From assembly GCA_026991575.1 (NCBI GenBank), contig JALXBF010000139.1, positions 1 through 45,352 on the forward strand: 45,352 bases of DNA. Direction: 5' to 3'. The translations under genes and the position numbers were made by a program. How positions within the stretch are numbered: position 1 is the stretch's first letter; every line of letters begins with the position of its first letter. The notes beneath the pieces were generated by a model. The model was not told the origin of the DNA, ran no database searches, and saw nothing but the letters and a program-made list of their open reading frames with translations. Source of the stretch: Planctomycetota bacterium (GTDB taxonomy: Bacteria; Planctomycetota; Planctomycetia; JALXBF01). This document shows, one piece after another, positions 3,559 through 14,421 of the stretch.

Positions 3559-4629
3559 TCAGAAGCCGTCTTCAATCGGTTCGCCGCCATCTCTGGTGCC
3601 CAGGGCACGCCACAGAGACAATTCGACGGAATCGCTCACAAACCGAACGTGCCCGTCTGCGAAAGCCACGTTCACACCGCCCGGATGCATACTCCGCGCG
3701 CTGACCGCCCCCCAGTGATCGGCGGTCAAGCAGTCGATGACCGCTGAATTTGGCGGCAGCACGTGGTTGTACAGCGTGTAGTACGGTCCGGTCAGCAGCC
3801 AGAACCGACCGGCGTAACCAAACGATGGCCGAGGCCCAGACCTGGTCAAGTGCGCGCAGATCGCCGTGTACTGATCCGTGCGATTCGGCGGAGGCACCAT
3901 CGAGAAGCGGTGGATTGCCCGGCGAGCACGACGATCCGCATCCGAGCGTGTTCCCACCAGGCGTTCGGACAGCGCGGCCGTCTGGGTCAGGCCATCGGCA
4001 ATGTGCGACGGCGAAATGGCCGGTGTCCGAAACACGCCGTGCCCGCTGTCTGGCCAGCCACGCCGAGTCGGAAGCGGGTCCAGCACGCCCGTGCTACCAC
4101 GGTACGAGCAGTAACCTCCTTCACGGGCCGCCTGATCGGCCGGACAGAGAAAAATCCCGACCGTTGTGTGGATCACCGTCCAGTTGGCTATGACGCCGTA
4201 CCCGGCGCCCTCAACATCGTTGACGCCGTCGACCGAAAAGTTGATCGCCTGATACAGATCGCTGCGTCCAAGAAACGGAAGTAGATGGCACAGAAACGAG
4301 AAGTTCCGGCGACCGGCAAGAACAGTCTGTCCGATATTGATCTCTCGGTGCCAGCTTGTGTTGAGAGGAGGATAGACCCGATGGGCATCAGTGTACTGCT
4401 GAAGACTCAGGGCAATCTGCCTCAGGTACTGCTGGCACGCCGTGCGGCGTGCGGCTGAACGGGCTCGCTGTAGAGCCGGCGTCAGAATGCTGAGCAGAAT
4501 CACAATGATCCCGACCACGGTCAGCAGCTCAGCAAGCGCCAAGCCCTTCGGCGTACGCAGGCGATTGGCTGATACGATGCCCTCTGTCGACTGTTGCCAC
4601 CTGTTAGGGACCTGGACTGGCTGGCACAT
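3559..4629 (-). CDS. DUF1559 domain protein (prepilin-type N-terminus, H-X9-DG C-terminus)
   Basis: KG-LALAELLTVVGIIVILLSILTPALQRARSAARRTAC, FLCPAD, ARSMHPGGVNVAFADGHVRFV: canonical planctomycete DUF1559 architecture. Confidence 0.95.
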   Translation of the reverse strand: MCQPVQVPNRWQQSTEGIVSANRLRTPKGLALAELLTVVGIIVILLSILTPALQRARSAARRTACQQYLRQIALSLQQYTDAHRVYPPLNTSWHREINIGQTVLAGRRNFSFLCHLLPFLGRSDLYQAINFSVDGVNDVEGAGYGVIANWTVIHTTVGIFLCPADQAAREGGYCSYRGSTGVLDPLPTRRGWPDSGHGVFRTPAISPSHIADGLTQTAALSERLVGTRSDADRRARRAIHRFSMVPPPNRTDQYTAICAHLTRSGPRPSFGYAGRFWLLTGPYYTLYNHVLPPNSAVIDCLTADHWGAVSARSMHPGGVNVAFADGHVRFVSDSVELSLWRALGTRDGGEPIEDGF

Positions 4630-5761
4630 TGCTCAAAGCTCCATCACTTTCCGCAACGCGGCTACGCCCGGTGATGAGAATCGGAAACGTTGCTTCCGTC
4701 TGCGGCACCCCCTGCAACTTGAAACGAACGGTCTGAAGCGGCGCGGCGATCTGGGTACAGTGGATGATGAGGGTAACGTCCCAGCGCGATTCGCGCGCCC
4801 GCTCGATCGTTGCGGTCATACCGGTCGGCTCCTCAGCGCTTGTGATATCAAATGGCCTGCCTGTGTTTGCCTCCAGTGCGACGCGGACCATGTGTCCGGG
4901 GCAAGACCCCTGCGTGCTGGGACATCCGGGGACGACCGCACTGGGCGGCCTTGCCCGAACTAAGGGCTGAGCAACGACGGTAACGACGGCGCTGTCGGCG
5001 CGATCTGCGGCGGCAACCTCAACCGGAACGCCGTACGTTCCGGGTGTAGTGGGCACCCGGACCACGGTGCGTACGGGCCATCTCAGCTCAACCAGATCGC
5101 CCGTAGTGGACGACGTAGCCGGCCCGGCGAGCGCTAAGGTCAGCATGTTGTCGGCAACGCGAACCTCCGGAGGTGACGGAGACGGCGCACGCTCTTGTTT
5201 GGCCCGTCGCACGACAAGCCAACCGTTGACCACGAGTCGCTCACCGGTGGTTCCTTCAATGAGTGGCTGTGCACCGGCCCTGTCCTGTGAGTCGAGGACA
5301 AGTTCCAGTGCGGGCACCACTCTCCCGTCAAAAAAGACCCGACGGCGCACAACGCCGCTAGCGCCCGTGCCCTGAAGCTCAAGGAGGGCCCACCCGGAGA
5401 GGTCTTGGGCGTCAGTGGGAACGGCGACCTGGAAAGCCAACCTCTCAGTTGCGTGGGGAGGGACACGAACTGTACCGCGGAGCGCACGAACGCAGCAGGG
5501 CGAACTGGTTGCAATGACTCGGACGCTTACGACCGACAGGCTCTGATTTGTCACCGGGACGTGTGCCACCACTGAACGCGGCCCACCTGCCAATACCGTG
5601 CCCACGTGCACAACGTCCGGAATCGCCGCTTTCGGGACGGTGTCCTGTTGCAGTGGGCCACTGGAGCCGCTGCATCCGGCAACCGCGCTGGCCAGACCCA
5701 CCACGTGCGCCAGCAGCCAAGTCACCTCCCATTGCCAGGTAGGACGTGAACGTGCCGCCAT
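4604..5761 (-). CDS. DUF1573-like Ig-fold exported protein, probable lipoprotein
   Basis: ATG 5761 after GGAGGGG; lipobox-like AVAG-C; HVGTV...VTNQSLSVVSVRVIATSSPCC...VPP resembles DUF1573; beta-rich repeats. Confidence 0.65.
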   Translation of the reverse strand: MAARSRPTWQWEVTWLLAHVVGLASAVAGCSGSSGPLQQDTVPKAAIPDVVHVGTVLAGGPRSVVAHVPVTNQSLSVVSVRVIATSSPCCVRALRGTVRVPPHATERLAFQVAVPTDAQDLSGWALLELQGTGASGVVRRRVFFDGRVVPALELVLDSQDRAGAQPLIEGTTGERLVVNGWLVVRRAKQERAPSPSPPEVRVADNMLTLALAGPATSSTTGDLVELRWPVRTVVRVPTTPGTYGVPVEVAAADRADSAVVTVVAQPLVRARPPSAVVPGCPSTQGSCPGHMVRVALEANTGRPFDITSAEEPTGMTATIERARESRWDVTLIIHCTQIAAPLQTVRFKLQGVPQTEATFPILITGRSRVAESDGALSNVPASPGP

Positions 5762-5782
5762 CACTTCCCCTCCACCGTTGGC

Positions 5783-5811
5783 ACCGTACCCCATGATAGT
5801 GTGTGTGTCAA
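5783..5811 (-). promoter_or_regulatory. sigma70-type promoter of the DUF1573/DUF1559 operon
   Basis: TTGACA-17 nt-TACGGT on the - strand, ending 22 nt before ATG 5761. Confidence 0.6.
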
Positions 5812-6100
5812 CCTCCCATCGCGGCTGCACATAATGGTGCTTCTTGCGAGAATTCAGTACGTGGGATCGTCGCGTGTGGGCCCCGTCCGATTCCTTTTCG
5901 CTGGCCCAACCGGGCCGTGCATCGCCTGGCAAGGACTGAACCGGGGACGATCGGTACGCACGGCGTGTTTGGATGCACTCGATCCGGCTTACTTACATCC
6001 GGCAGCGATGGAACCGAGCCGCCGAGGCTTCACCGCAGCAGTGCGCCGAAGTGCTGAACCAGCGGCGCGGTGGTCAACCGGCTAGGCATCCCTCCCGCTC

Positions 6101-6849: not shown

Positions 6850-7320
6850 TCACGCTTTGTCTTGACCGCGCGTGTACCACGATACGAAGCGGTCTCTGTG
6901 CCAGCAGCGGAGCTCATAGCCAGACAATGCCCTGATCAGGGGATGGTCGGTCGTAACGAGCAGCGATGCTCCGCTAGCCAGGTACGACCGGACGAGATAC
7001 CAGTCGTCAGGCTTTATCTTGGCGTACAGTTCCTCCGGCATCGGATGCAGCTCGTGGTCACGAAGGAGATGGCACTCATCGCAGTTCTCGATGAATTGCG
7101 TCCGAAACATCTTCACAATTGCACGTCGCGGATCCCCCGATGGCGCGTCCTTCGCCATGCGGTAGAACTTCCTTAGAAACGGGCTACCTGAGACGGCCAC
7201 TAATTGGTCGCATCTCTCGACGAGGGTTGCCAGTACGCGCACGGATTCCCTTTGTGCCCCCTCCCCGTGTTCTCCCCAAAGATCGGCCCACAGCCATTCG
7301 TCGAGGACGAAGCGCGCCAT
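6850..7320 (-). CDS. PIN-domain ribonuclease-like protein
   Basis: Start MARFVLDE (ATG 7320, 4 nt after the ATPase stop); acidic PIN motifs FVLDE, PDDWYLV, LLVTTD; 156 aa. Confidence 0.7.
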   Translation of the reverse strand: MARFVLDEWLWADLWGEHGEGAQRESVRVLATLVERCDQLVAVSGSPFLRKFYRMAKDAPSGDPRRAIVKMFRTQFIENCDECHLLRDHELHPMPEELYAKIKPDDWYLVRSYLASGASLLVTTDHPLIRALSGYELRCWHRDRFVSWYTRGQDKA

Positions 7321-7324
7321 CGAA

Positions 7325-8518
7325 TCACCCGATGCCCAGCAGTTTCTTAAGGTCCTCCAGTTCCGCCTCGACAAAGGTCTCGAGCCCTCCAGAAATCTGG
7401 CCCTCCGGGGTTACATCCTGTCTTCGGACCACGGTGGCCCGTCCAGTCTTCTGGCACAGATAGCACCGTATCTCTTCCGGTGCCAGCTTTCCCTCCGCTA
7501 CAAGCGTCAGGACCGCGGTCACAAACAGCTCGCTGTGCGTTGTTACGACGACTTGCTTAGCCTCCGCCCGAACGATCTCACAGAGTACCCTGACGAAACT
7601 GCGTAATGCTGTGGGATGCAGGTGAACTTCCGGCTCTTCGATCAGAACCGTCCTCACTGTGGGTCGTAGAGTCTTTGCCAGGAGGTAGACGAGCTGGTTG
7701 ACGCCGAAGCCGTCATTGACGAGGAATCCCGGGGTACGTGATTCCTTGTCCGTCGTCTGAAAGAACACGCTGGCGGTACCCGGTGGCGTAAATGTACGAA
7801 AATCGCGACCGACGGCTTCCTCGAGATATGCGGAGATTCGTGCGTGAAGATGCCGGTCGTTGATGATCAGAGAAGCGACTTCGTCCTCCGTGACAGGCAG
7901 CGGAGAGACAGGGACGCTTGTGTAGCTTGGCTTGAAGAAGCCACGGATGGCTGGCGCAATGTCGATAGCTTTGATCTGTTCCGTGAGTGCATTGATGGCT
8001 ACGGATAGGTCGCGAGCACGCTGCTGTGTCTCCGGCGTGGGTTGGGCGGGCAAGACGGAAGAACAGGCGATACCGTTCCAGTTGATCTTGTACTCGGCTT
8101 CGCCCTCCACGTACGACAGGGAGAAGGTCTTGTTTAACGCGTACGGAACGGGGACCTCGCCATGAAGGATGAGTTCTCCCCAGCGTTGCTCAACTCGGGC
8201 GGCCTTCTGAGAGAAGGACAGTCGGTACGAAGAAGGACGGTTTCCTTGCCCGTCGGAGGAAAGTGTGATGGAGATCTCACGGTCCGGTTCGTGGTTGAAG
8301 ACGCAGGCATCGAACCCTCCGAGATCCATAAACCCGAGGTGAAGGTACGCATCGGCAGGCCGGTTCGGGTTGACCAAGAAGTTACGCAGCACCAGTGGCG
8401 CATACAGAAGGCTGGATTTCCCGGACGCTGTTGGTCCGTAGAGGAGCACGAGAGGTGCCAGTTCCAACTCGGCCTTTTCGATGGACCGGAAGTTTTCTAT
8501 GGTGACGGTGCGGATCAT
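7325..8518 (-). CDS. ABC-type/AAA ATPase (AAA_15/AAA_21-like, DUF3696-like C-terminus)
   Basis: ATG 8518 after GGGAGG; MIRTVTIENFRSI, Walker A GPTASGKS, signature GFGVNQ, Walker B/D-loop LIEEPEVHLHP, H-loop TTHSE. Confidence 0.9.
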   Translation of the reverse strand: MIRTVTIENFRSIEKAELELAPLVLLYGPTASGKSSLLYAPLVLRNFLVNPNRPADAYLHLGFMDLGGFDACVFNHEPDREISITLSSDGQGNRPSSYRLSFSQKAARVEQRWGELILHGEVPVPYALNKTFSLSYVEGEAEYKINWNGIACSSVLPAQPTPETQQRARDLSVAINALTEQIKAIDIAPAIRGFFKPSYTSVPVSPLPVTEDEVASLIINDRHLHARISAYLEEAVGRDFRTFTPPGTASVFFQTTDKESRTPGFLVNDGFGVNQLVYLLAKTLRPTVRTVLIEEPEVHLHPTALRSFVRVLCEIVRAEAKQVVVTTHSELFVTAVLTLVAEGKLAPEEIRCYLCQKTGRATVVRRQDVTPEGQISGGLETFVEAELEDLKKLLGIG

Positions 8519-9170
8519 TCTGTGCACCTCCCTGGGAAGAATCGCCAACTCATCGGCGGTCGTGTGGGCGGCAGTGGCGACGCCCCCGAACGGACTGCTG
8601 GCCCCGCGGATGGACCGCGAAGGGCAACTAATGGTTCGTGGGGAGGAGACGCCCGAATCCGCAGCCCTTGTGCGTCGTCCGGCGCGTTGGTGCCCTACAG
8701 CCAGTGTACCTGGGCCCGCCGTGGTTGAATCGCCAGCTTCGCCGCAGGTCATAGCGGGTGGACACCACGGTCGTGACAGCGTGCGATCGCGCCAGCGCAA
8801 CTCTTGTGCCGACAGAAGCCCGGTGCACCGCGACTCGTTCTAAGGGCACCCGTTCCTCTGACTAAATCCGCCGTAGCTGGCGGTGTGACTCAACTCTTGC
8901 ACGCCGTTCGGACGCCCGATCGAGACGATCGGAGGTACTTCGTCCGCGCAGCAGCTCGAACGCATCCTCCCGACATCCAGAGCGTCTCGATTGCCGTTTC
9001 GCCCGCACGCGCAGCGGGCTAGCTACCGGTCAGACGCGGGCAAGGACTGAATCGGACGCCGTTGTCGACTTAGCGGATGCGATTCTGAGAAGGGGCGGCA
9101 CGACGGTGTCGAACCACTGAGGAGGACCGACTACAGCGGTCGGAACGTGTCGCGGACGGCAACGGGGATG

Positions 9171-9260
9171 AACCCGCCAGCTTCCTTCAATGGGCGGGAG
9201 GGAGGCGTACAGCCCCCCCCTCCCGAGATTTCCGGGAGGCTGGGGGGTTGAATGATTCTT
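9171..9260 (+). repeat. Intergenic hairpin repeat family, copy D
   Basis: AACCCGCCAGCTTCCTTCAATGGGCGG vs copy B AACCCAGCAGCTTGCGTGAATGGGCGG; then CGGGAGGG..CCCTCCCG hairpin and GGGGGTTGAATGATTCTT vs copy A GGGGGTTGGCATGAATCTT. Confidence 0.55.
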
Positions 9261-9520
9261 CCACGCAGGCGGAACCAACCGGCGGCGAGGAGGTCCGGCC
9301 GGGCGGAGCCAAGGGTGGGACGACGGGAGCGGGAGGGCTGGCGAAGGGTGGGGAGAACATCGCGAGGCGTGTGGTTTCGGGAGAGCCAGCGGCGGGGTGT
9401 GCACATTTCGGGACGGGCCGGTCGTTCAGAGCTCCACGCTACGAGAGCAGCCGGCGAGTAGCCGGGACGCTGCGGCGGGAATGGGGGGGAAATGGGCAGC
9501 TCAACGGGAGAGGCGGACAC

Positions 9521-9805
9521 AAAAAACGACCCGGTTGGCAGCCGCTCAACAGGGCCAGGTGGCAAAGGTAGTGTGGCGCGGCTATGATGACGGGTGTGGG
9601 CAAGAACGAGCCGCAGGTTAACCTACGCCGGTTAACCTCGCGAGGTACCGTGCCCGACGCCTTGACCCGTCGATCAAACGTCTGGCCCGTCCTTGCCTCA
9701 CACACGCCATCTCAGCCTGCCACCCCACACTTGGCTACCTGCTCCGGAGTGCCCTGTGTTTTCTTGGCTCCCATCCGGGTCCGCAGTGGGGCGATTCGAT
9801 CCGGT
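9521..9805 (-). ncRNA. Candidate structured non-coding RNA (long irregular rod, branched tip, 3' U6 tract); family not recognised
   Basis: 9528-9612 is an imperfect inverted repeat of 9684-9781; several arm differences are G-U pairs only on the - strand; inner hairpins 9656-9682 and 9615-9638; TTTTTT (- strand, 9521-9526) follows the stem; sigma54 promoter upstream; no convincing ORF. Confidence 0.6.
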
Positions 9806-9815
9806 AGGCTGTGTA

Positions 9816-9831
9816 TGCACCTCTCGTGCCA
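9816..9831 (-). promoter_or_regulatory. sigma54 (-24/-12) promoter
   Basis: TGGCACG-AGAG-GTGCA on the - strand vs consensus TGGCACG-N4-TTGCW (1 mismatch, correct GG-N10-GC spacing); predicted start near 9805. Confidence 0.65.
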
Positions 9832-9941
9832 TAGGCACGACGCAGGGGCCCCGGACCGAACGTTCTCTTGCAACACCAAATCCCTGAACCAGTTGCGTGC
9901 AGGGTGCCAGGATCCGATCGGAAGGGCGTTGCTTGGACCGC

Positions 9942-10080
9942 AGTGTTTAGTTTCTGAACACTTCGTCGGGCGCTCACGGTTCTTCGTTCGGGAACTCGGC
10001 GCAACCACTTGTCAAAAGCGGCAATGTGTGCGAAAATAGCGAGTGTCCGAATTGTGGCCACGTGTTCAGAATCTGGTCTA
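9942..10080. promoter_or_regulatory. Candidate upstream activator sequences for an NtrC-family enhancer-binding protein
   Basis: Dyad AGTGTTTAG-TTT-CTGAACACT (9942-9962, TGT-N11-ACA) and two adjacent related motifs GTGTCCGAATTGTGGCCAC (10043-10061) and GTGTTCAGAATCTGGTCTA (10062-10080). Confidence 0.45.
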
Positions 10081-10091
10081 AGGCGGCTTGC

Positions 10092-11819
10092 ATGCAGGTG
10101 TCCAGGGCTAGGCCCGTACAACTCGGTTGGTTGACGCCGGTCGTGCTTCTGTTGCCGACCTTCAACGCTGCGGCGATCGTTTACCTTGCCCAGGGCCAGC
10201 TCCAGACCGATCCGATCGCCCCGTGGCGTACCGCTTACTTGGTCTCCGGCTGCCTAATTGTCCAGCTGCTGTTGCTGCTGATTACCGACACTGCCGCTCA
10301 CCGGCTCAGCGCCCACGCTGCCTTGTTTGCCGCCACGCTGAAGACATCGCTCTTGGCGGCCATTGCTCTGAAAACCGGAGGCTACTCGTTCGTTGCGTTC
10401 TACGTCTTGATTGTCCTGGTCGCTGCTGTTCGGTTTGGGCAATGGCCGGCGCTTGTGCATCTGCTCTGGATCACGCTCGTGCAGACGGCCGCGACGTACT
10501 GGAACCTGCCACTGATTCTGGGCATTCCGGACGTACAACCCCGGCTGGGCATTTCGGCGATCACCCCGGCTGCCACGTTGTGTCTGCTGGCCTTGGTTGG
10601 CTATGCAAGCTGGGTTATTCGGCGGCTCCGCTATCTGGAGACGCTCAGCCGGGCGATCTCCGACGGTGTCCTTGTGCTGTCGGAAGACGGAACGGTTCTG
10701 GAGGCGAATCGACAGGCCGCGGAGCAGGCGGGTCGGCAGCTTCCCGAGCTGCTGGGCCGGTCACTTTTTGAGTTGTGCACGTTGCCTGAAGGGGCCCACG
10801 AGGAGCTCCGCACGCTGTGGTCTGCTTGCCTGCGCAACGGGCACGCGCGCTTTGAGATGCTTTGGCAGCGGCCGGACGGGAGCACGTTACCGGCGGAGTT
10901 GGTGGCGGCGCGTGTCGAGGGGGTCAAGCCGGTTCGTGTGCAAGCGTTCACGCGCGACATGTCGCGTTGGAAGGAGATGGCCGCTGCGATCGAGCGGCAG
11001 AACGAGGAGTTGCGTCGCATGAACGTGGAGCTGGCGCGCAGCCGTGACCTGGCTCTGGAGGCCAGCCGGCTGAAGAGCCGGTTCCTGGCGACGATGTCCC
11101 ACGAGCTGCGCACGCCGCTGAATTCGATCATCGGCTACACGAAACTGCTGCTTGCTGGCCCCGAGCCGCTCAGTGATCAGGTCCGGCAGGACCTGGAGTG
11201 TGTCCTGCGGGCGGCCACTCACCTGCTGGACCTCATCAACGGCCTGCTCGATCTTGCCCGCATCGAGGCAGGCAAGGAGACGGTGGAGCGCGAGGCGGTC
11301 GAACTGCGCGATGTGGCGACGGCGGCGTTGGAATCGGTTGCCCCTCTGGCGCGCCAGAAAGAGCTGCCCGTGCGGCTCGTCGACCACTGTAGCCGTGAGA
11401 CCGTGCTGTGCACGGATCGCAAGAAGCTGTGGCGAATCCTGGTTAACCTACTGTCCAACGCAGTTCGCTTCACGGAGGAAGGCGAAGTGGTGCTGGAGCT
11501 GGCGGAGGCCGACGGGCTGGTCGTTCTGCGCGTGCGCGACACGGGCATCGGGATCCCGGCTGCCGACTTGCCGCACATCTTCGACGAGTTCCACCAGGTG
11601 AAGAACTGGCATCGCCAGACCGGTGCTGGCACCGGGCTGGGGCTGGCCATCACCAAGCGGCTGGTGGAGCTTCTGGGTGGCACGATCCTGGTGACCAGTG
11701 AGCCGGGCAGAGGCAGTACGTTCGAGGTCCGGCTGCCACTGACGCAACCGGCCGCAGCATCGCAGCAGCCGGCAGCGTCTGGGGCCGCAGTGAAGGGGGG
11801 GATGCGCGATGAGCAGTGA
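10092..11819 (+). CDS. Membrane-bound PAS-domain sensor histidine kinase
   Basis: Several N-terminal TM segments, PAS, H-box FLATMSHELRTPLN, N-box NLLSNAVRF, G boxes DTGIG and GTGLGL. Start probably ATG 10092 (ORF track 10026). Confidence 0.95.
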   Translation: MQVSRARPVQLGWLTPVVLLLPTFNAAAIVYLAQGQLQTDPIAPWRTAYLVSGCLIVQLLLLLITDTAAHRLSAHAALFAATLKTSLLAAIALKTGGYSFVAFYVLIVLVAAVRFGQWPALVHLLWITLVQTAATYWNLPLILGIPDVQPRLGISAITPAATLCLLALVGYASWVIRRLRYLETLSRAISDGVLVLSEDGTVLEANRQAAEQAGRQLPELLGRSLFELCTLPEGAHEELRTLWSACLRNGHARFEMLWQRPDGSTLPAELVAARVEGVKPVRVQAFTRDMSRWKEMAAAIERQNEELRRMNVELARSRDLALEASRLKSRFLATMSHELRTPLNSIIGYTKLLLAGPEPLSDQVRQDLECVLRAATHLLDLINGLLDLARIEAGKETVEREAVELRDVATAALESVAPLARQKELPVRLVDHCSRETVLCTDRKKLWRILVNLLSNAVRFTEEGEVVLELAEADGLVVLRVRDTGIGIPAADLPHIFDEFHQVKNWHRQTGAGTGLGLAITKRLVELLGGTILVTSEPGRGSTFEVRLPLTQPAAASQQPAASGAAVKGGMRDEQ

Positions 11820-12987
11820 TTCGATCGACCGCTTACGTGCCGATGGCATTGTCATTGACGACAGCCCGGGTGCCGTGCTCGTGGTCGAGGATCAGCCCTT
11901 GGACCGCGACCTGATCGTGCGAGTGCTCCAGCGGGGGGGGCATCGGGTGCGGGCAGCGGCGTCGGCTGCCGAGGGGCTTGAGTTGCTCGAGCGCGAGCGG
12001 CCCGAATTGATCCTGTGCGATATTTCCATGCCGGGCATGGATGGGCTGGAGTTCTGCCGCACCGTCAAGGCGCGCCTGGGTGATGAGTTTGTGCCGTTTC
12101 TGTTTGTCACCGCGCTGACCCGCCCCGAGCACCTGCTGGCCGGCTTCGAGGCTGGGGCGGAGGACTACATCGAGAAGCCGTTCGAGTTCGAGGAACTGCT
12201 CGTGCGCGTGCGGACCATGCTGCGCATTCGCCGGCTTCATGCGGCGCTGCGCGAGCATGCGCGCCGCCTGCAGGAGGCTTATCACGAGACCGAAGAGCTG
12301 GTGCATGTTGTCTCGCACGATCTGCGCGCGCCGCTGGTGAGCATTGTCGCCGTCACCAACGAGCTGCTTGAGCGGTTCGCGTCCGGCCAGCCCGATCTGG
12401 CGGAGGTCCGCCGGCTGCTGGAAGAGCTGCGTGCGGCAGCGGCCCATTCGGCCGAACTGGCCAACAAGATCGTCGAGTATGGCCGCCTGGGCCGAAACAC
12501 CTCCGGTTGGATCCGATTCGATGTTGGCCTGGCCTTCGAGCAAGCACGCCGCAACGTGCAGGCCCAGCTGCGAGCGGCCGGGGCCGAGCTGAAAGTGCCT
12601 GACCGCTGGCCGGAGCTGTTCGGCGACCCGATTGGCATCTGCCAGGTGTTTCAGAACCTGCTGGACAACAGCTGCAAGTTCGCTGACCCGCACCGGCCTC
12701 TGCTCATCGAGGCTGGCTGGCAGCCGGTGCCCGGTGTCCCAAGACGCTACCGCTTCTGGGTGCGCGACACGGGACAAGGTATCGACCCGGCGCGACAACG
12801 TGATGTGTTCCGGCTCTTTGCTCGTGCCCACAGCGGGCAGCCCGGCTACGGCGTCGGCCTGGCGGCCGCCCAGCGCATCGTCCGCCGCCACGGCGGCCAG
12901 ATCGGGCTGGAGTCTGAGCCCGGGCAGGGTACCACCGTCTGGTTCATCCTGCCAGAAGGAACGGAGGTCCAGACCGCACAGCGTTGA
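11809..12987 (+). CDS. Receiver-domain + histidine kinase protein
   Basis: REC (VVEDQ, LCDISMP, IEKP), H-box VSHDLRAP, NLLDN, DTGQG, GYGVGL; overlaps the upstream gene by 11 nt. Confidence 0.93.
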   Translation: MSSDSIDRLRADGIVIDDSPGAVLVVEDQPLDRDLIVRVLQRGGHRVRAAASAAEGLELLERERPELILCDISMPGMDGLEFCRTVKARLGDEFVPFLFVTALTRPEHLLAGFEAGAEDYIEKPFEFEELLVRVRTMLRIRRLHAALREHARRLQEAYHETEELVHVVSHDLRAPLVSIVAVTNELLERFASGQPDLAEVRRLLEELRAAAAHSAELANKIVEYGRLGRNTSGWIRFDVGLAFEQARRNVQAQLRAAGAELKVPDRWPELFGDPIGICQVFQNLLDNSCKFADPHRPLLIEAGWQPVPGVPRRYRFWVRDTGQGIDPARQRDVFRLFARAHSGQPGYGVGLAAAQRIVRRHGGQIGLESEPGQGTTVWFILPEGTEVQTAQR

Positions 12988-12996
12988 GGTTAGCTG

Positions 12997-14421
12997 ATGT
13001 CGTTGACCGAACGCACTGCCGATCAAACGCAGCGCGTGACGCCTGCAGCCTTTCGACGTGTGCTCGTTGTGGACGACGATCCACTGCATCGGGAGCTGTC
13101 ACGCCGCGCTCTGGAGCGCGAGGGGCTGGCGGTGGAAGTGGCCGAATCGGCCGAGGAAGCTCTGGCCCGGCTCCGCGAGCAGCATTTCGATGCGGTCGTT
13201 TCCGACTACAAGTTGCCCGGCATGACTGGCCTCGAGTTGCTGCAGCGGCTGGGGCGGCCCCCGGCGGCCCCCCCACTGGTCCTCGTAACGGCGTTGGGCG
13301 ACCAGCGGGTGGCGGCCGAAGCGCTGAAGGCCGGGGCACAGGAATATGTGGTCAAGGACGTGCCGGCGCTGGGCTACCTGGAGATGCTGCCGACGCTGAT
13401 CCAGGAGGCGATCCGCCGTTCGGAACTGCTGCGCGAGAACGCAAGGCTCAGGGAACAGCTCCAACAGAGCAGCCCGGACGGTCTGCTTGTGGGACGCTCC
13501 GCAGCGATCCGTCGTGTGCTGGCCTTGATCGAAGAAGTAGCCCCGGTCGACTCCACCGTACTGATTACCGGCGAGAGTGGCACGGGCAAGGAGCTGGTGG
13601 CCAGGGCAATACATCGGCGAAGCCCGCGTGCGTCCGGCCCGTTCGTCGTGGCCAACTGTGCTGCGCTGCCGGAAAGTCTACTGGAAAGTGAACTGTTCGG
13701 GCACGAGGCCGGCGCGTTCACCGGGGCGCGCGCGGCACGCAAGGGCCGTTTCGAACGCGCCAACGGCGGAACACTGTTCCTCGACGAACTCGGGGACATT
13801 CCGCCCAAAGCCCAGGTTGACCTGCTGCGCGTGCTCCAGGAGCGCGAATTCGAGCGGGTCGGCGGCACGCAGACGATCCGTGTTGACGTCCGGATCATCG
13901 CAGCAACTAACCGCGACCTCCAGCAACTGGTGCGCGAAGGCAAGTTCCGCGAAGACCTGTACTACCGGGTCAACGTCATCCCGATCCACCTGCCCCCCCT
14001 GCGCGAACGACCTGAAGACATCGCACCGCTGGCTTACCACTTCCTGCGCCGGTTTGCTCGCCGGTTCAACAAGCCGATCGAAGGGTTCACGGCGCGGGCG
14101 ATGGAAGTGCTCACCGCTTACGCCTGGCCCGGCAACGTGCGGGAGCTAGAGAACTTGATCGAACGCGTCGTCGTGCTCTGCCGGGCTGATCGGATCGACG
14201 TCGAGGATCTGCCGTCACACCTGTGGCGCAAGAGCAAAACCATGCCCCTGGAAACGGTCGACAACCTGGAACTCGTCGAGAAGCTAACGATCGAACGCGT
14301 GGTGCGTACCAGTAGCACCGTGGCCGAAGCAGCCCGACGACTCGGCATCTCGCGCACCACGCTCTACGCTAAGATGCGCAAGTACGGCCTGGACACTACC
14401 CTCCTGAAGCACTCCTCCTGA
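12997..14421 (+). CDS. sigma54-dependent response regulator (NtrC/AtoC family)
   Basis: REC, Walker A GESGTGKE, ESELFGH, GAFTGA, LFLDE, WPGNVREL, Fis-type HTH AARRLGISRTTLY. Confidence 0.97.
   Translation: MSLTERTADQTQRVTPAAFRRVLVVDDDPLHRELSRRALEREGLAVEVAESAEEALARLREQHFDAVVSDYKLPGMTGLELLQRLGRPPAAPPLVLVTALGDQRVAAEALKAGAQEYVVKDVPALGYLEMLPTLIQEAIRRSELLRENARLREQLQQSSPDGLLVGRSAAIRRVLALIEEVAPVDSTVLITGESGTGKELVARAIHRRSPRASGPFVVANCAALPESLLESELFGHEAGAFTGARAARKGRFERANGGTLFLDELGDIPPKAQVDLLRVLQEREFERVGGTQTIRVDVRIIAATNRDLQQLVREGKFREDLYYRVNVIPIHLPPLRERPEDIAPLAYHFLRRFARRFNKPIEGFTARAMEVLTAYAWPGNVRELENLIERVVVLCRADRIDVEDLPSHLWRKSKTMPLETVDNLELVEKLTIERVVRTSSTVAEAARRLGISRTTLYAKMRKYGLDTTLLKHSS

Follow-up and report, generated by a model that had tools for sequence, protein, structure and literature searches.

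The 45,352-nt stretch analyzed here (the window) is part of a 4.96-Mb assembly (G000, 97.8% complete) from an uncultured hydrothermal-vent lineage of the Planctomycetota. In a gap of ~1.2 kb it carries a gene for a structured RNA, whose predicted transcript runs on the minus strand from 9805 to 9521 (~285 nt). The RNA gene is divergent from an operon encoding a sensor kinase, a hybrid kinase and, as its last gene, an NtrC-type sigma-54 activator (12997-14421), and an ATPase gene lies downstream of it (Table 1). A first-pass annotation made from the letters alone had proposed an unannotated structured RNA gene on this strand, with a sigma-54 promoter motif and a U-tract terminator, and that proposal is borne out by the sequence evidence assembled below. 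The existence of the RNA gene is well supported. We further consider it reasonably probable that 9805-9521 is an independent gene for a trans-acting small RNA (sRNA) that is switched on by the neighbouring two-component system, through a mechanism that we offer as a hypothesis.

Table 1. Features of the RNA gene and its surroundings, in window coordinates.
Feature	Position	Strand	Remarks
OLD/AriA/NsnB-like ATPase (AAA_15/AAA_21)	7325-8800	-	Downstream of the RNA; best PADLOC matches NsnB, AriA and HEC/OLD-type defence ATPases
U tract GUUUUUU	9521-9527	-	Directly 3' of the closing helix GACCCGG/CCGGGUC; intrinsic-terminator-like
3' arm	9528-9612	-	Holds natural variants 9574 and 9585
Branched tip	9613-9683	-	Contains conserved motif GGGCACGGUACCUCGCG (9655-9639); GGUACCUCGC in all three orthologues; hairpins vary by genome
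5' arm	9684-9781	-	Includes 9-nt bulge ACUCCGGAG (9750-9742); UCCGGAG kept in all three orthologues
5' leader ACCGGAUCGAAUCGCCCCACUGCG	9782-9805	-	Unpaired, ~24 nt; candidate seed
Predicted +1	9805	-	12 nt past the -12 GC
Sigma-54 promoter motif TGGCACG-AGAG-GTGCA	9816-9831	-	GG 9830-9829, GC 9818-9817; 10-nt GG/GC spacing
Candidate enhancer, palindrome GTGTTCAG-AAA-CTAAACAC	9943-9961		19 bp; -156 to -138 from the predicted start
PAS-HisKA-HATPase sensor kinase	10026-11819	+	Divergent from the RNA gene; true start maybe slightly downstream
Receiver-HisKA-HATPase hybrid protein	11809-12987	+	Same gene in G001 and G002
NtrC-family response regulator	12997-14421	+	Receiver, sigma-54 interaction AAA+ and Fis-type helix-turn-helix domains

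On the minus strand, segments 9781-9684 and 9612-9528, exactly the arms given by the first-pass annotation, are collinear imperfect complements around a 71-nt branched tip, and ~254 nt of the transcript form one imperfect rod. Both strands of 9515-9815 were folded and their minimum free energies compared with those of 100 dinucleotide shuffles. The minus strand reached -158.7 kcal/mol versus -118.6 +/- 5.6 for the shuffles (z -7.2; 0/100 as good), and the plus strand reached -139.5 kcal/mol (z -4.1). The rods of two orthologues described below, in G001 (same family as G000, another genus) and G003, fold to -154.3 kcal/mol (z -5.2) and -145.9 kcal/mol (z -5.8), respectively. All three orthologues show the strand bias that had pointed to an RNA fold on the minus strand. 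The predicted transcripts of G000, G001 and G003 have energies of -154.6 kcal/mol (98 pairs, 7 G.U), -147.4 kcal/mol (7 G.U) and -144.0 kcal/mol (16 G.U), and their complements of -133.8 (4 G.U), -135.0 (5 G.U) and -113.7 kcal/mol (10 G.U); in each case the RNA strand beats its complement, by 12-30 kcal/mol, and has more G.U pairs.

The mean probability of being unpaired, P(unpaired), is 0.25 for the rod, whose pairing is broken most widely by an 8x5 internal loop and a 9-nt bulge close to the rod base; a large central bubble is absent. What had been read as a ~10x10 bubble is better drawn as the 9-nt 5' bulge ACUCCGGAG (9750-9742), the pairing shared with the G001 orthologue. The UCCGGAG of this bulge, with its self-complementary UCCGGA, has a P(unpaired) of 0.92 in two orthologues. 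Both tip hairpins noted earlier were found in G000 but are specific to it, the conserved element of the tip being the motif GGGCACGGUACCUCGCG, and the A-rich loop AAGAAAAC lacks conservation in G001. A 20-codon frame beginning at AUGGGAGCC is absent from G001, and a coding frame is excluded by indels of 4 and 5 nt between blocks that are invariant in G000 and G001.

The TGGCACG-N4-GTGCA motif of the first-pass annotation was recovered at 9831-9816. Its GG-N10-GC core is kept in G001 (TGGCGCG-CCAT-GTGCT), G003 (GGCCTTTGATTTGC) and a metagenome variant (TGGCACG-CAGA-GTGCA) despite changed surrounding bases. G000 has rpoN (Sigma54_DBD match of 208 bits on contig C36), and the strict consensus TGGCACG-N4-TTGCW occurs 16 times in the genome versus ~1.3 expected, a 12-fold over-representation indicating that canonical sigma-54 promoters are in use in this organism. 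At the other end, the U6 tract described behind the closing stem is likewise there (GUUUUUU, 9527-9521), and the arrangement is that of an intrinsic terminator, a G+C-rich helix followed by a U tract (9534-9521). The same was found in G001 and G003, with U6-U7 tracts behind the closing helix; it is atypical for the terminator helix to form the base of an entire rod. Upstream of the main promoter, at a distance of 78 nt (9909-9894, minus strand), stands a second sigma-54-like motif with the correct GG/GC spacing, TGGCACCCTGCACGCA, which lacks conservation in G001.

Natural variation around the element was examined by comparing 9300-10100 with DNA contigs of four vent metagenome runs. Contigs of three runs, extending from 9520, 9549 or 9703 to 9803, show only two differences (~99% identity), both A>G on the RNA strand, one turning a U-A pair into U.G (9574) and the other falling in a bulge (9585), with the fold energy unchanged. 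Past 9803 their resemblance to the window ceases, but the diverging end, read on the RNA strand, has TGGCACG-CAGA-GTGCA, again 13 nt away from the conserved CGGAUCG. In a contig over 9346-9599, 32 differences and 4 gaps were counted, almost all of them within 9346-9515. This distribution of variants indicates that conservation extends from the predicted start to the U tract.

Among the genomes sampled, the order of G000 comprises four (G000-G003), and orthologues of the RNA were found in three of these, from three genera (G000, G001 and G003), and not elsewhere among the genomes searched. BLAST of the locus against 40 relatives returned only G001 (78% identity over the 5' half) and missed G003, whose copy was spotted by eye upstream of the kinase orthologue. 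The intergenic regions upstream of orthologous kinases, a check the first-pass annotation had suggested, hold rod, promoter and terminator in G001 and G003, and no rod in G002. Kinase orthologues are full-length only in G001 (57%), G002 (44%) and G003 (43%), other matches in 201 genomes of the class covering only the catalytic half. All three signalling genes are present in G001 and also in G002; in G003 the kinase orthologue adjoins the RNA and the contig ends there, the regulator gene lying beyond it. Wherever the contig permits the check, the RNA is divergent from the same kinase/hybrid kinase/NtrC-type operon.

The blocks CTGCGGAC, TCCGGAG and GGTACCTCGC with the U6-U7 tract are collinear in all three orthologues at near-equal distances. 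A signature pattern matched 12 of 401 genomes of the class: besides the three true loci there were 10 hits in 9 genomes, all without upstream motif or U tract and comparable in number to a reversed-pattern control (5 hits). A 20-nt leader block scanned against public metagenomes gave only the G001 contig and two chance hits (L012, within a coding region, and L013, with no further similarity), and a 21-nt arm block scanned against a public genome collection gave only G001. Within the G000 assembly BLAST returned only the locus itself, the next match having an E value of 0.7 over at most 26 nt. The gene is thus single-copy and not a miniature inverted-repeat transposable element (MITE), for which dispersed copies had been named as the sign to look for.

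Conservation differs along the RNA, and the two arms have changed together. Between G000 and G001 identity is 22/22 nt in the leader, 76.5% in the 5' arm, 58.8% in the tip and 58.4% in the 3' arm, and blocks of 20-27 nt in the 5' arm are invariant although their 3' partners changed; between G000 and G003 it is 46-53% in every part. The arms have thus diverged to ~50% identity, yet their pairing persists. We compared duplex energies, free of any alignment, for own, swapped and shuffled arms. Own 5' and 3' arms gave -119.6, -98.5 and -111.5 kcal/mol for the three orthologues, whereas the G003 5' arm gave -52.9 and -58.9 kcal/mol with the 3' arms of G000 and G001, and shuffled 3' arms gave -64 +/- 5.7 kcal/mol. 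Since the cross-family swaps tested pair no or little better than shuffles, the arms have co-evolved.

When the G000-G001 alignment of the 5' arm was projected on both predicted folds, the 55 shared collinear pairs, a set restricted to positions paired in both folds and hence biased towards structure, comprised 42 identical pairs, 7 with a 3'-side exchange between G-C and G.U or U-A and U.G, one changed on the 5' side only and 5 double compensatory changes. The 7 one-sided exchanges would be mismatches if read on the other strand. Misaligned 3' arms in a MAFFT alignment caused RNAalifold to disrupt the central part of the rod, and a 186-nt single-sequence covariance model (R1), which gave 28.5 bits for G001 and only 9.1 bits for G003, was too specific for wider searching or a clean three-way alignment.

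These comparisons bear on whether the element acts as RNA at all. A DNA feature, such as a cruciform, an operator array of the divergent operon or a mobile-element remnant, with promoter and terminator motifs present by coincidence, would account for both strands outfolding their shuffles, as any inverted repeat does, and dispersed repeats do occur just downstream, at about 9168-9311. The element itself, however, is single-copy, its strand asymmetry recurs in three orthologues, and the G-C to G.U exchanges would read as C.A mismatches on the opposite strand. With promoter and U tract at fixed distances in three genera, and arms that pair in spite of ~50% identity, we regard such a DNA-only origin as very improbable.

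A second question is whether the RNA belongs to a downstream gene. The genes downstream differ among the genomes: a 1257-aa WD40 gene starts ~180 nt past the terminator in G001 and a 1420-aa WD40 gene ~200 nt past it in G003, and the G000 orthologue (52% identical to that of G001) lies on contig C153 behind an unrelated upstream region. NtrC-type activators commonly control an adjacent operon. With a WD40 gene downstream in two of the three genomes, the RNA could be a cis-acting, sigma-54-driven 5' leader (attenuator), such that expression of a giant secreted WD40-repeat protein would be induced by the activator, with rod and U tract setting the read-through. We consider this unlikely. RNA, promoter and terminator are intact in G000, where no WD40 gene follows, which favours an autonomous RNA. 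Conservation halts at the U tract, the closing helix with its U6-U7 tract resembles an efficient terminator in all three genomes, and the leader has no complementarity to the WD40 upstream regions, nor to the RNA's own operon.

The first-pass annotation had seen no tRNA, tmRNA, RNase P or SRP helix-8 motifs, and no Rfam family matches the RNA: a scan of the whole window with Rfam 15 at gathering thresholds gave 0 matches, also for Qrr, GlmY/GlmZ and CrcZ, and a permissive scan of 9300-10050 (E<=10) gave mostly plant microRNA hairpins (best 27.5 bits versus a cut-off of 137) and four weaker unrelated hits. Its suggestion of a 6S-like polymerase decoy found no support, as 6S RNA (RF00013) gave no covariance-model match at E<=10, the rod has no central bubble, and a canonical 6S RNA lies elsewhere in the genome (C58:54670-54859, plus strand; 57.9 bits versus a cut-off of 46.4). 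Nor does the RNA look like a CsrA-type sponge of the CsrB/RsmY/RsmZ kind. GGA occurs 6, 9 and 8 times in the three orthologues versus about 5-6 expected, 533, 100 and 106 of 1000 shuffles reach these counts, and 0-1 GGA fall in hairpin loops. G000 has two csrA genes, one of them ~400 nt from rpoN (C36:12289-12444, plus strand, and 12850-13326, minus strand). Hfq was not found in G000. A retron msr-msd was also considered and found no support: a Pfam scan of 9 neighbouring frames gave no reverse transcriptase, and the OLD/AriA/NsnB-like ATPase at 7325-8800 is missing at the orthologous loci.

Titration of a protein, be it a CsrA-like regulator, a double-strand-RNA-binding protein, an RNase or, as for 6S, the polymerase, is a broader alternative, with the 5'-arm blocks, the UCCGGAG bulge and a GGUACC motif of the tip as sites. 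The invariant 5'-arm blocks with changed 3' partners would point to sequence-specific recognition of duplex or bulge, and both the open UCCGGAG and the two csrA genes would suit it. We judge titration rather unlikely in view of the near-expected GGA counts and their scarcity in hairpin loops, the lack of 6S match and central bubble with a separate canonical 6S RNA, and the lack of any partner protein gene that accompanies the RNA throughout the three genomes.

The regulator of the divergent operon scored under every NCBIfam equivalog cut-off (for GlrR, 344 bits versus 763), leaving it a generic AtoC/NtrC/ZraR-like protein. Upstream of the promoter, the palindrome at 9943-9961 has a counterpart in G001, GTGTCCAG-AAT-CTGGACAC at -140 to -122, in which both halves changed together, and a degenerate form of the pattern occurs only at 9943-9961 in the whole genome; G003 has a different inverted repeat in its place. 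By position and form, the palindrome would fit an enhancer, or upstream activating sequence (UAS), for a dimeric NtrC-type activator. A palindrome half-site also lies inside TCTGAACACGTG (10070-10059, minus strand; about 1905 in L010), which G000 and G001 share right where the kinase frame opens. This element may serve autoregulation, and its position suggests a kinase start downstream of 10026.

The 5' leader, which like the NtrC-type activator went unremarked in the first-pass annotation, is the most accessible part of the RNA (mean P(unpaired) of 0.75, 0.63 and 0.49 in the three orthologues) and the part most conserved between G000 and G001. A complementarity scan of G000 with the whole RNA gave matches of at most 16 nt, scattered over non-conserved parts, except for one hit to the leader. 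This hit, the sole genome match of at least 14 nt involving the leader, lies upstream of a gene for a secreted protein of the PSCyt2/PSD1 family (DUF1549/DUF1553; C116:75410-77119). The site, CGCAGTGGGGCGAT at -31 to -18, is a perfect 14-nt complement to leader nt 11-24 and is located 3 nt before an AAGGAG ribosome-binding site and downstream of a TTGACA/-10 promoter conserved in orthologues. The G001 orthologue (protein 79% identical) has CCAGTGGGCGATTTGATCC at the equivalent position, where it would pair with leader nt 3-21 and scores 29.5, a value reached by only 2 of 15,356 background windows (taken upstream of G000 frames). A core is common to both sites, from which pairing is extended in opposite directions, and this fits selection for pairing better than plain inheritance. 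A second candidate site, GCAGTGGGCGATTTGGTC, is found 47 nt upstream of a 767-aa gene without a Pfam family (C36:5089), whose G001 orthologue has a weaker site right before the ATG (score 24, 99th-99.9th percentile). Pairing of the leader with these two mRNA leaders is, on complementarity, a target lead, and occlusion of the ribosome-binding site would be the simplest guess for the direction of regulation.

We hypothesize the following mechanism for a trans-acting sRNA. Sigma-54 RNA polymerase would bind the -24/-12 promoter at 9831-9816, which would be opened by the NtrC-type regulator of the divergent operon, probably bound at the palindrome 9943-9961; we infer this activation, and transcription itself, from the motifs and the gene linkage. 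The transcript would start near 9805 and fold into the ~254-nt imperfect rod, whose last helix, with the U6 tract, would stop transcription at about 9521. The free leader of ~24 nt would then pair in trans with mRNA leaders just upstream of ribosome-binding sites, the best candidates being those of the secreted PSCyt2/PSD1 gene and the 767-aa gene, and the rod would supply stability, no Hfq having been found, in addition to the terminator.

Several observations weigh against parts of this reading. For the targets, the PSCyt2/PSD1 site of G000 ranks only about 6th-10th of the 15,356 windows, and the 12-mer and 11-mer of the leader core have 3 genome hits each (for the 12-mer including the RNA gene itself) versus 1 and 2 for reversed controls, which is chance level. 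The 5' untranslated region (UTR) of the PSCyt2/PSD1 orthologue in G003 has no site, and an anti-leader scan of that genome gave four one-mismatch hits, two within coding sequence and a pair of identical hits at contig ends without clear UTR context. As G000 and G001 are relatives, the similarity of their UTRs may be partly inherited, and a shared DNA operator would also explain the same motif. The UAS assignment is based on two genomes. In G002 the three signalling genes are present, yet a rod is missing upstream of the kinase and the signature pattern from the whole genome, and so the operon can exist without the RNA. (In the place of the rod, at about 1120-990 of L017 on the minus strand, the kinase and an acyltransferase gene of G002 flank a short, very basic, R- and K-rich frame of ~45 codons.) Three orthologues and near-identical metagenome variants are too few sequences for a formal covariation statistic, and the pair count given above is biased towards structure. 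Finally, the better conservation of the 5' arm relative to the 3' arm is unexplained by a purely structural role of the rod.

A more speculative reading is that the rod could be a storage form, a bacterial 'pro-sRNA', in which sequence-specific effector segments of the 5' arm (the 20-27-nt blocks invariant between genera) are masked by a freely evolving 3' arm and released by cleavage or unwinding. We hold this to be improbable; if true, a single sigma-54-controlled transcript would supply a 5' seed that is always open together with seeds released under certain conditions, in a lineage of the phylum where no Hfq was found and hardly any sRNAs are known.

Of the neighbouring sequences, the ATPase gene at 7325-8800 encodes a P-loop that starts near residue 95, such that its true start is probably at about 8536, and it is followed by frames 6850-7374 and 4604-5932 (minus strand), which match no family. 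From its absence at the orthologous loci of G001 and G003, the ATPase block may be an inserted defence island. Between ATPase and RNA, 9168-9311 has ~20 partial copies on other G000 contigs (65-90% identity, mostly ~30-120 nt), and 9346-9487 is matched by several contigs in four metagenome runs that stop at 9485-9487, with differing continuations and higher summed depth; no open frame or family was recognised in either stretch.

Regulatory RNAs appear to be almost unknown in Planctomycetota, to judge from the Table 1 of one survey, which lists 8 distinct annotated sRNAs for the Planctomycetes-Verrucomicrobia-Chlamydiae (PVC) group versus 345 for Proteobacteria (PMC9029176). A full-text literature search returned no description of a sigma-54-dependent sRNA for Planctomycetota. 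The locus offers a complete testable circuit of sensor kinase, hybrid kinase, NtrC-type activator, sigma-54 promoter, 285-nt RNA and candidate targets, one of them from the planctomycete-specific PSCyt2/PSD1 family, and its architecture is unusual, a single long rod serving as both RNA body and terminator.

Four known systems invite comparison. The Qrr RNAs of the Vibrionaceae are ~100 nt long, form several short hairpins and are Hfq-dependent, and qrr1 adjoins luxO; the G000 RNA, in contrast, is a single 285-nt rod without an Rfam match in a genome where no Hfq was found. The likeness lies in the control, the sRNA being made from a sigma-54 promoter that needs a phosphorelay-fed NtrC-family regulator (PMC10162802). 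LuxO binds palindromic UAS sites ~100-130 bp upstream, those before qrr1 lying at about -130 (PMC10162802). GlmY/GlmZ with GlrK-GlrR (QseE-QseF) of Enterobacteria are similar as sRNAs tied to a two-component system with a sigma-54 activator, and one of the pair is a protein decoy (PMC7073468, PMC4152352). On that account, such RNAs can act by base-pairing or by sequestration. The G000 RNA differs from them in its fold, in having no Rfam match and in an activator far under the GlrR cut-off. CrcZ is several hundred nt long and an unstructured sponge with repeated A-rich motifs, whereas the G000 RNA forms a GC-rich rod and has no repeated motifs. The resemblance to CrcZ with CbrA-CbrB of Pseudomonas is that of a long regulatory RNA, dependent on sigma-54 and a bacterial enhancer-binding protein, through which a two-component system mainly acts (PMC8871633). 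6S RNA (RF00013) is also a rod with paired 5' and 3' ends, but the G000 RNA is ~100 nt longer, has a sigma-54 promoter motif of its own and no central bubble, and does not match the family. By analogy, the logic would be that of Qrr/LuxO, GlmY/GlrR and CrcZ/CbrB, an sRNA as output of a two-component system via sigma-54, with membership in none of these families. The G000 RNA is a new RNA family of a regulatory kind that is already known, and the rod doubling as terminator sets its shape apart from those families.

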